Positions 15,085 through 17,339 of a stretch of DNA of 52,953 nt are shown piece after piece (position 1 is the stretch's first letter; the number at the start of each line of letters is the position of its first letter). Source of the DNA: a virus (lineage: Duplodnaviria; Caudoviricetes); IMG/VR virus record IMGVR_UViG_3300031565_000046, positions 1 through 52,953 of that record. One strand, written 5' to 3'. Under the pieces are notes generated by a model. That model saw nothing but the letters and a program-made list of their open reading frames with translations. It was not told where the DNA came from and did no database searches. The position numbers and the translations under genes were made by a program.

Positions 15085-15924
15085 TTATTTGGGTTTAGAT
15101 TGACAGCATTTCTTATACTTCTTTCCAGAACCACAAATACATGGATCATTACGACCCGGTTCTTTACTATGTTCGATGCCACCAGCACTTGTTACAACTA
15201 CTTCATCAATACCTAACAGATGATTGATCTCATGTTGCCAAATCTGAGCTTCAAATCCCTCAGCGATAACTTCATGCTCTTTACCTGTTTCATCATAATA
15301 CTGTACAGTAACTGAGTAATGTCTATCAGCAACTACTACTTTACCGGGCCAAGTGAGACAATATTCTTTCTTCTCACTTAATAGTCCGTTTGTATCTATG
15401 ATAATAGGGTTTAGTATTAAAGACCACTCACCAGTTTCCCGATTCTTTTTAGCAAAGGCTGGTAACATAAAGCGATTAAGTTTATTGAATGTGCCATTAG
15501 GAAACTTATCCCAGATACCAACTTGATTAGCTGCTAAACCTATCCCTGTGGGATATGATTTGCTTGCGTGCAGTAAGAAATCCCGGAGAATCTCTTTATG
15601 ACCAAGTAACTCTTCAATATCCATTTGAGGTACCATAGGTGTTTGCTCACCTGTCATGATTGCCCATTCATTCTTACATTGTTCCAAATTACCTACTGGT
15701 TTTGGTCCATCATATTCTTGGATCATATCACTAACATTAACTTTGGGCGTAACGCTACCTTGTTTAGTAATGGTAATACCTCTTTCTTTTTCTTTTGGCT
15801 CTAGTCCTATTGGTTGTATGTGATGTTTACTAGTTGCTGCTACGATAGCTGCTGTTAATGTTGTTTTTCCGTGGTCAATGTGACCAATTGTGCCAATATT
15901 AGGCACTTTCTTTTTTTCAGCCAT
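15085..15924 (-). CDS. def: peptide deformylase with N-terminal EF-Tu-like segment and C-terminal SEC-C motif
   Basis: [22 protein letters not shown] motifs; [19 protein letters not shown]...EKERGITI; [18 protein letters not shown]. Confidence 0.85.
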
Positions 15925-16249: not shown

Positions 16250-16570
16250 TAAAAAAGAGGGCACTGACGTAGCCCTCAAGTCTCGTTAAAGATGGTCTGC
16301 TTATGCAGCCATTGCGTGCGCTCTTGGAGCTAACGCTTCTTCAATTAGGCTTATTACGGCAGCCTCTGCCTTTTGTTCGTCAATTAGACGACATGTATCA
16401 TTAGTGGTTCCATCATCTTACTAGTCTGTCAAAATCAAGTACGCCCCCATATTTTTTAAGAGATTGGCTTTATCCACAAGGGAGCCCTTATCTTGCTAAC
16501 AGGTATTCTAGTGGAGGCGGAGGGAGTCAAACCCTCGTCCAAACGTTGGATTGTTACTAATGGCTAACAA
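16250..16570 (-). ncRNA. ssrA: circularly permuted (two-piece) tmRNA
   Basis: 3' tRNA-like end GGAC-GAGGG-TTTGACT-CCCTC-CGCCTCC-A (16540-16512) lies upstream of 5' end GGGGGCG-TACTTGATTTTGAC (from 16448); G3.U70 pair; tag frame ending AHAMAA-TAA at 16301; terminator 16250-16277. Confidence 0.9.
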
Positions 16571-17233: not shown

Positions 17234-17264
17234 GGCTTTTGAGTTTTAGTTAATATTTATTATG

Positions 17265-17339
17265 AACTACATGCGGGACTCGAACCCGCGACTGCTCCCG
17301 TATTAAGGGGAGTCATCTAGCCGACTGATGTAATGTAGT
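17265..17339 (-). tRNA. atypical tRNA with 8-nt anticodon loop (CUUAAUAC), identity undetermined
   Basis: Acceptor ACTACAT/ATGTAGT, D stem CATC/GATG, anticodon stem CTCCC/GGGAG, T arm GCGGG-TTCGAGT-CCCGC. Confidence 0.8.

Follow-up and report, generated by a model that had tools for sequence, protein, structure and literature searches.

A phage peptide deformylase with an EF-Tu-derived N-terminal piece and a SEC-C tail

The peptide deformylase of Escherichia coli docks on the ribosome through a C-terminal helix, which viral deformylases lack according to the available parts of PMC5591237 and PMC12690207. The SEC-C motif is the metal-binding domain of SecA, for which interactions with 70S ribosomes and SecB are described in the accessible part of PMC6620043. 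Phage deformylases are abundant, and a SecA-type zinc tail suggests a testable answer to the question of how they get to the ribosome when they lack the docking helix of the bacterial enzyme. Here we analyze an enzyme of this kind encoded in a linear virus sequence of 52,953 bases (IMG/VR record IMGVR_UViG_3300031565_000046; CheckV completeness ~44%), referred to below as the window. Judged by its sequence, the product of open reading frame (ORF) P0001 is a phage peptide deformylase that opens with ~55 residues derived from the start of EF-Tu (the head piece) and ends in a SEC-C tail. The explanation of the head piece that we favour, at roughly even chances, is that it represents a captured 5' fragment of a tuf gene, which would now serve as a flexible or disordered leader.

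EF-Tu itself features in several anti-phage systems, namely Lit, type IV Thoeris and Avs7, which cut or use it. Lit cuts EF-Tu at a Gly-Ile bond, in a reaction that depends on the Gol peptide bound to EF-Tu domains II-III. Cleavage by Lit is cited in the available parts of 10.1101/2024.10.24.620036 and 10.64898/2026.01.04.697583; the former describes a type IV Thoeris caspase that cuts EF-Tu after R45 and R59, at EEKAR, and the latter gives EF-Tu as 6-10% of the E. coli proteome. A literature search of open-access papers and bioRxiv found no report of a phage deformylase with SEC-C, of EF-Tu fragments in phage proteins or of the EF-Tu head-deformylase-SEC-C architecture.

Domain organization of P0001

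The ORF and its parts are located in the window as follows.

15085..15924, minus strand: ORF P0001, 279 amino acids; EF-Tu head piece, linker, peptide deformylase and SEC-C tail
15760..15924, minus strand: EF-Tu-derived piece, residues 1-55; strand 1, P-loop, helix 1 and a shortened switch I up to RGITI (Pfam and PDB matches)
15835..15900, minus strand: block 1, residues 9-30; G1/P-loop with flanking strand and helix
15766..15798, minus strand: block 2, residues 43-53; end of switch I with the G2 threonine
15673..15759, minus strand: linker, residues 56-84; contains a 13-residue stretch common to three piece-bearing proteins
15190..15672, minus strand: peptide deformylase core, residues 85-245 (Pfam, invariant active-site residues, model, Foldseek)
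15100..15153, minus strand: SEC-C zinc motif, residues 258-275 (Pfam; C262, C264, C273, C274)

The N-terminal part of P0001 (residues 5-55) matches positions 1-60 of the 188-position Pfam GTP_EFTU profile (E 1.5e-10, 41.4 bits, cut-off 26.5), and in phmmer searches of PDB sequences residues 6-54 align to residues ~11-65 of EF-Tu chains (E ~5e-9), so that this stretch is six residues shorter than in EF-Tu. It contains the G1 P-loop motif GxxxxGK[ST] as GHIDHGKT (residues 14-21) and the G2 threonine motif RGITI (residues 48-52). With the whole EF-Tu from IMG/VR locus L040 as a reference for the motif blocks, 18 of 19 positions are identical in the P-loop block and 9 of 10 in the block up to RGITI; the intervening spacer is unrelated, and the distance from the P-loop Lys to the RGITI Arg is 28 residues in P0001 versus 34 in L040. 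Two small PHROGs families of uncharacterised function match residues 1-32, and the ESM Atlas look-alikes of residues 1-60 are short EF-Tu fragments only.

The G3 (DxPGH), G4 (NKxD) and G5 motifs and the remainder of the G domain are absent from the full protein by Pfam, since the match stops at profile position 60 and the remaining sequence of P0001 is deformylase; GTP_EFTU_D2 and GTP_EFTU_D3 (domains II and III) gave no Pfam match either. Without G3 and G4 motifs P0001 is not a GTPase, and on this motif content the head piece alone cannot bind and hydrolyse GTP. A split GTPase completed by a partner ORF was considered and rejected, as the whole 52,953-base record, itself ~44% complete, holds one GTP_EFTU match. 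The base composition of the head piece (guanine-cytosine content 0.364, against 0.355 for the window; 0.20 at third codon positions) is phage-like, so that it is not a recent import. In these respects the preliminary description of this DNA, drawn up from the letters alone, was accurate: it had recognized at 15760-15924 an EF-Tu-derived segment of ~55 residues, with a shortened spacer and no G3 or G4 motif, in frame with a peptide deformylase.

That the second component is a genuine deformylase is indicated by several results. Pfam Pep_deformylase matches residues 118-239 (E 1.5e-22), and all three motifs of the enzyme are intact, namely GxGxAAxQ, ExC with the metal cysteine, and HExxH, which reads QHEINH in P0001; these motif designations agree with those in the available part of PMC12690207. 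The residues Q134, E187, C189, Q230, H231, E232 and H235 are invariant in an alignment of 61 sequences. AlphaFold2 predicts residues 91-240 with block means of the predicted local distance difference test (pLDDT) of 90-98, and the top Foldseek matches of the model are all deformylases (E ~1e-8, probability 1.00). The best deformylase match in the phmmer search of PDB was the Vibrio phage VP16T enzyme 5mtc (E 1.1e-9), and PHROGs assigned P0001 to phrog_2890 (peptide deformylase) and phrog_6880 (elongation factor).

The C-terminal tail, which the preliminary description had missed, matches Pfam SEC-C over residues 258-275 (E 6.9e-10, cut-off 20.4 bits), and its cysteines C262, C264, C273 and C274 are invariant or nearly so in the same 61 sequences. 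The combination of deformylase and SEC-C is common in large phages, with 32 distinct IMG/VR loci (L002-L033) on contigs that reach 363 kb. N-terminal additions of other kinds occur in further members, such as the zinc-ribbon-like ones of P0135 and P0172. By analogy with SecA, the tail probably docks the enzyme on the ribosome, and P0001 is most likely a phage deformylase that would act on nascent chains there.

History of the head piece among deformylases

In a word-indexed search of 5.8 billion proteins, the head piece was found only in two further deformylases, P0002 (350 amino acids, 80% identical to P0001) and P0003 (360 amino acids, 64% identical). A profile-free search of 1.84 billion cluster representatives returned P0003 as the sole deformylase relative covering the head; P0002 was missed there because it falls in P0001's own 50% cluster. 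In none of the 32 IMG/VR relatives does the match to P0001 start before residue 82; it starts at 82-89 in 30 of these loci and at 125 and 164 in the remaining two. A maximum-likelihood tree of the deformylase part, built from 22 rows picked from the best matches with the other matches left out, groups P0001 with P0002 (support 100/97), then P0003 (87/77), followed by P0004 (99/95) and P0005 (92/86), both of which are devoid of the head piece. The simplest reading of this tree is a single acquisition of the piece by the ancestor of P0001, P0002 and P0003.

In P0002 and P0003 the piece is internal, a position that had also escaped the preliminary description, and follows an N-terminal domain of ~85 residues, which occurs without the EF-Tu piece in P0005 and P0124. 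On the same simplest reading, this domain would have been lost later in P0001. In P0002 it covers residues 1-85, is absent from P0001 and appears to be an uncharacterised beta-rich domain (W.PY...YEK.E.DIKLHDG...YPNAG), with pLDDT block means of 77-95 over residues 1-70 of the AlphaFold2 model.

P0001 is the sole member of the three that retains both motif blocks. P0002 has block 1 (21 of 22 positions identical to P0001), reads QPITI in place of RGITI, and has its spacer deleted, with 14 alignment columns gapped (11 spacer and 3 block-2 positions). In P0003 block 1 is degraded to IGVIG--NHPGAVLQAAMIAAA, with a two-residue deletion inside the P-loop, and RGITI is missing. A derived spacer of the same length is common to P0001 and P0003, and therefore the shortening is older than their split. 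Between these two proteins identity amounts to 10/20 in block 1, 2/12 in the spacer and 3/8 in block 2, as against 115/161 in the core; the linker of P0001 is identical to those of its piece-bearing relatives at 17/31 and 13/26 positions. Thus, by sequence comparison the head piece appears to evolve faster than the deformylase core, except for block 1 between P0001 and P0002. The argument that selection had kept both motifs while the spacer diverged is weakened by this comparison, as P0002 has lost RGITI together with the spacer and P0003 has lost both motifs; such poor conservation in the two relatives argues against a function that needs both.

In the AlphaFold2 models, pLDDT falls below 50 and secondary structure is absent in two segments of P0001 (11-55 and 57-59) and in one of P0002 (83-128), and the flanking domains are mostly above 90; over residues 51-80 of P0001 the 10-residue block means are 47, 63 and 57. 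We therefore consider, at the roughly even chances given above, the following course of events. The 5' end of a tuf gene, from a host or from a phage-borne tuf, would have been captured once in the ancestor of the small clade and inserted ahead of the deformylase core. In P0001 the piece would serve as an unstructured N-terminal leader, and in P0002 and P0003 as a linker between the older N-terminal domain and the core. It is eroding in the sister lineages and would be under weaker constraint than the enzyme. As a leader or linker, the piece thus seems to be under relaxed constraint here, with block 1 in P0001 and P0002 as a possible exception.

Two sets of observations weigh against capture followed by erosion, the first from the deformylases themselves and the second from unrelated phage proteins. 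Between P0001 and P0002 block 1 is identical at 21/22 positions and the core at 136/161, a difference that is not statistically strong. P0001 retains 27 of 29 EF-Tu positions over the two blocks while its spacer is scrambled, which fits constraint in the P0001 lineage; on the tree, the branch leading from the ancestor of the clade to P0001 amounts to ~0.22 changes per column, a rough estimate that does not set the two blocks apart from the core with confidence and from which no claim of selection is drawn. Moreover, only three sequences cover the head region, which makes the low pLDDT weak evidence of disorder.

EF-Tu head pieces on other phage proteins

The second set of observations concerns the recurrence of similar pieces elsewhere. 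A tblastn search of 50,697 phage records with residues 1-60 of P0001 identified two isolated phages. The Vibrio phage Va2 protein QPB08564.1 (195 amino acids, annotated as elongation factor Tu) has a P-loop block with Arg replacing Lys, followed at the same 28-residue spacing by EEKERGITV and then by unrelated sequence, so that it holds both blocks; no relatives of it were found except itself and one EF-Tu. D11S_2248 of Aggregatibacter phage S1249 (phrog_27465), a 59-residue ORF of the nin region, is EF-Tu-like for its first 26 residues, and a DNA-level match was obtained for Haemophilus phage Aaphi23 as well.

A scan of IMG/VR with the EF-Tu N-terminal motif gave 94 confirmed stretches, of which the best 80 loci were kept; the pattern required [PIV]N[VI]GTIGH, and this heptad is thus present by ascertainment. 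The loci fall into four classes.

46/80 loci: whole GTPases
12/80 loci: genes cut by the contig end
5/80 loci: broken or truncated tuf genes (L065 was assigned to this class by hand; its other half is on L128)
17/80 loci: mid-contig ORFs in which unrelated sequence follows an EF-Tu head

The last class places the same head piece on ~12 groups of unrelated phage ORFs. These orphan heads (L083, L087, L089, L094, L095, L098, L099, L100, L101, L105-L109, L113 and L115, with the match near 2501 in most) lie mostly at the very start of the ORF, and most stop after helix 1. Their fusion partners include the terminase large subunit (L100), DUF7220 (L083) and small nin-region ORFs, and they occur in nin-like and early regions, in one capsid module and in jumbo phages. 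In the family of alignment A5, which comprises L083, L087, L089, L098 and nine database clusters and whose subfamilies are 42-45% identical overall, 17 of the 34 invariant columns lie in the 20 columns V12-L31 of the EF-Tu-like piece. The first 22 codons of L089 and L098 differ by six synonymous and no non-synonymous changes. Beyond EF-Tu itself, the other phage ORFs with head pieces show no sign of common descent with the piece in the window.

Several further features were seen in these records. The head pieces, which include those at L034:2501-3088 and L035:2474-2653, correspond to about residues 10-35 of EF-Tu and in Va2 extend to RGITV. Whole EF-Tu-like genes lie in the middle of viral contigs, some longer than 400 kb (L064, L066-L079, L082, L084-L086, L088 and L090); in L064, L069 and L076 switch I reads KGG[TI]VRD...VTI rather than RGITI, the others of this group being scored by pattern only. 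In the EF-G scan described below, L211:1883-2806 (a 308-residue frame) and L212:1949-2788 (280 residues) encode homologous phage proteins with a zinc-ribbon-like C-terminal end; L212 has an internal exact 12-residue copy of EF-G switch I, EVHDGAATMDWM, 11 residues of which are shared by L211.

If the recurrence reflects a function, phages would be practising a novel form of host mimicry, directed at the most abundant protein of bacteria. The piece would then be a working mimic of the EF-Tu N-terminal region, a portable module of strand 1, P-loop and helix 1, in P0001 extended into switch I, that engages an EF-Tu-recognising host factor, for instance as a decoy for a defence enzyme; the targets proposed are Lit, the arginine-specific type IV Thoeris caspase and kinases, acting on switch I. 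We regard this alternative as doubtful. Its more specific form, in which the first ~25-55 residues of EF-Tu would be a portable mimicry module grafted on unrelated phage proteins and P0001 would keep the longest version, seems to us doubtful to at least the same degree. If true, such a module would sit on a deformylase, a terminase, membrane proteins and small early proteins, and might, for example, blunt EF-Tu-directed defence as a pseudo-substrate.

The controls speak for mimicry. For the G3 region of EF-Tu, the 67 loci comprised whole or frameshifted tuf genes, contig-end cuts and one tuf cut at a provirus edge, with no mid-contig fusion to unrelated sequence among them, and a search with the first 60 residues of E. 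coli EF-G found an orphan P-loop head in none of 29 loci, although it used exact E. coli words and was thus of lower sensitivity. The 17 orphan heads among 80 loci, the invariance of the piece in the A5 family, the synonymous bias in L089/L098 and in L101/L107 (11 synonymous changes and one non-synonymous in the first 26 codons), and the two correctly spaced blocks of the Va2 protein point in the same direction, as does the position of several orphan pieces in early or nin-like regions, the home of accessory genes. In addition, P0001 carries KEKER followed by GITI at the place matching the Thoeris caspase site EEKAR in EF-Tu, as that site is given in the available part of 10.1101/2024.10.24.620036.

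However, the same source describes the caspase as promiscuous for arginine, and RGITI is kept in only one of the three piece-bearing deformylases and in few orphans, most of which end after helix 1. Va2, L105, L108 and L115 have substitutions at the P-loop lysine or at residues next to it. At 6-10% of the proteome (available part of 10.64898/2026.01.04.697583), EF-Tu would leave simple substrate competition unlikely, as it would require very tight binding. Purifying selection could also be imitated by patchy exchange with tuf, for which P0277 and the bunched changes in L101/L107 are indications. EF-Tu domains II-III, where Gol binds, are absent from P0001. The preliminary description had built its decoy proposal on RGITI as the site cut by Lit; in both comparisons, P0001 with P0002 and among the orphan families, conservation falls on the P-loop block instead of RGITI, and the decoy idea thereby loses its main argument. 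The P-loop block, rather than RGITI, may have a function, because the head piece recurs on unrelated phage proteins and is invariant in the A5 family.

Alternatively, the piece may matter at the DNA level or be a by-product, that is, a patch of homology that remained after capture of the tuf 5' end and was possibly renewed by exchange, and whose peptide is irrelevant. In favour of this, only the 5' part of tuf occurs as orphan pieces, and the P-loop DNA of the window is 80-89% identical to the tuf genes of many organisms. In P0277 (147 amino acids, A5 family) a canonical EF-Tu start takes the place of the first ~14 residues and meets the phage protein exactly where the piece lies, which looks like an exchange with a tuf gene at that point. 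The synonymous changes of L101/L107 are bunched, with nine of the 11 in a 12-codon core and two in the 12 codons preceding it; the final 13 codons of the gene have none. Together with the start of P0277, this bunching suggests that patchy exchange may keep head pieces EF-Tu-like. Provirus edges at contig ends cut tuf near codon 97, followed by unrelated sequence (L044/L180 and L181), which suggests that some prophages sit inside tuf.

Other observations make this alternative unlikely. Integrase genes are not adjacent to the pieces; the tyrosine integrase family PF00589 was found in two of 10 orphan-piece records, each time more than 14 kb away, and tuf as a site-specific integration site (attP) was rejected on this ground. 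Capture of a promoter was also rejected, on weaker grounds, as the similarity of L101 to E. coli tuf comprises codons 4-27 only, with no upstream DNA, and in the window just 11 bases separate the upstream ORF from the ATG of P0001, so that no tuf promoter was brought in. The phage-like composition of the piece is a further point against this alternative. An RNA-level function was a third rejected candidate, since the synonymous changes inside the piece argue against it. Compared with these alternatives, we continue to prefer capture of a tuf fragment that now acts as a leader; on that explanation the head piece on this deformylase may be a mere fossil, and its recurrence elsewhere, if due to repeated capture of tuf 5' ends, would mean that host-gene debris is recycled as leaders of phage genes.

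Gene integrity, neighbourhood and known systems

A further alternative is that the EF-Tu-like stretch is not translated, with one of two Met codons farther downstream, M67 or M90, as the start. Both codons are in frame, and relatives without the piece begin ~4-11 residues ahead of the conserved NEQTP stretch; none of the sequencing runs listed as holding window sequence is an RNA run. Nevertheless, we give this possibility only a slim chance. The 66 codons before M67 are open, for which the probability is 0.008 at the window stop frequency of 0.07 per codon, and the ATG at 15924 abuts the upstream gene, beginning 11 bases past its stop. The linker before M90 is conserved as protein in all three piece-bearing proteins, the piece is internal to the ORF in P0002 and P0003, and a start at M90 would delete strand 87-89 of the confident AlphaFold2 model.

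An assembly chimera of a bacterial tuf and a phage contig is very unlikely, to the point of being negligible: single contigs from three runs (possible source samples) span 15000/15010 to 16423/16584 and cross the entire ORF with zero differences, a contig of 292 bases from a separate study (the fourth run) agrees with the window at every position of 15549-15840 and thus bridges the junction between deformylase and EF-Tu piece, the protein-search record places P0001 on 3 contigs, P0002 and P0003 share the layout, and the read-depth spike over 15844-15901, which might suggest a chimera, stems from tuf genes of other organisms in the same metagenomes (80-89% identical) and marks a tuf-like patch of only ~58 bases with phage sequence on each side. 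The junction proposed from the letters alone therefore holds in the contigs of several runs.

The neighbourhood of P0001 contains three further annotated features.

16301-16561, minus strand: putative permuted (two-piece) tmRNA, two genes upstream of the deformylase
17264-17339, minus strand: tRNA gene; tRNA-Ile with anticodon AAT by ARAGORN, Rfam tRNA 50 bits
17678-18499, minus strand: AAA+ ATPase; Pfam AAA (E 8.7e-16), phrog_5534 (E 5e-121)

The putative tmRNA scored 46.9 bits with Rfam tmRNA_permuted, narrowly below the gathering score of 47, and was thus missed at threshold; a partial beta_tmRNA match covers the tRNA-like part and the tag frame ends in ...AMAA-stop, but ARAGORN made no tmRNA call in this interval. 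For the tmRNA-docking role that had also been suggested for the piece, this neighbourhood is the one point in favour. The tRNA is not listed in the whole-window Rfam gathering scan, its 50 bits coming from the E-value scan. The AAA+ ATPase gene is 68% identical at the DNA level to a stretch of Chryseobacterium phage MA9V-3 that carries a ClpX annotation, a hint that the host is of Flavobacteriia type. Apart from the ATPase, the neighbouring ORFs matched no informative family (10 scanned in Pfam and 10 in PHROGs).

In comparison with known systems, residues 5-55 of P0001 share with EF-Tu strand 1, the G1/P-loop, helix 1 and the end of switch I with RGITI. Unlike EF-Tu, P0001 has no G3, G4 or G5 motif and no domains II and III, its switch I is six residues shorter, and most of the piece has pLDDT below 50. 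The other phage ORFs with EF-Tu heads (Va2, S1249 and the IMG/VR loci) carry the same EF-Tu N-terminal stretch on different partners. The tail of P0001 has the same Cys pattern as the C-terminal metal-binding domain of SecA and belongs to the same Pfam family; in contrast to SecA it sits on a deformylase, for which ribosome binding is predicted. The peptide deformylases of Vp16 (5mtc) and of cyanophage S-SSM7 (3uwa), both found by Foldseek, have the same catalytic fold and the same three metal and catalytic motifs as P0001, and like P0001 they have no C-terminal docking helix of the E. coli type, as far as the available part of PMC5591237 describes them. P0001 differs from both enzymes in adding the SEC-C zinc tail and the EF-Tu head piece, the latter being unique to its small clade.

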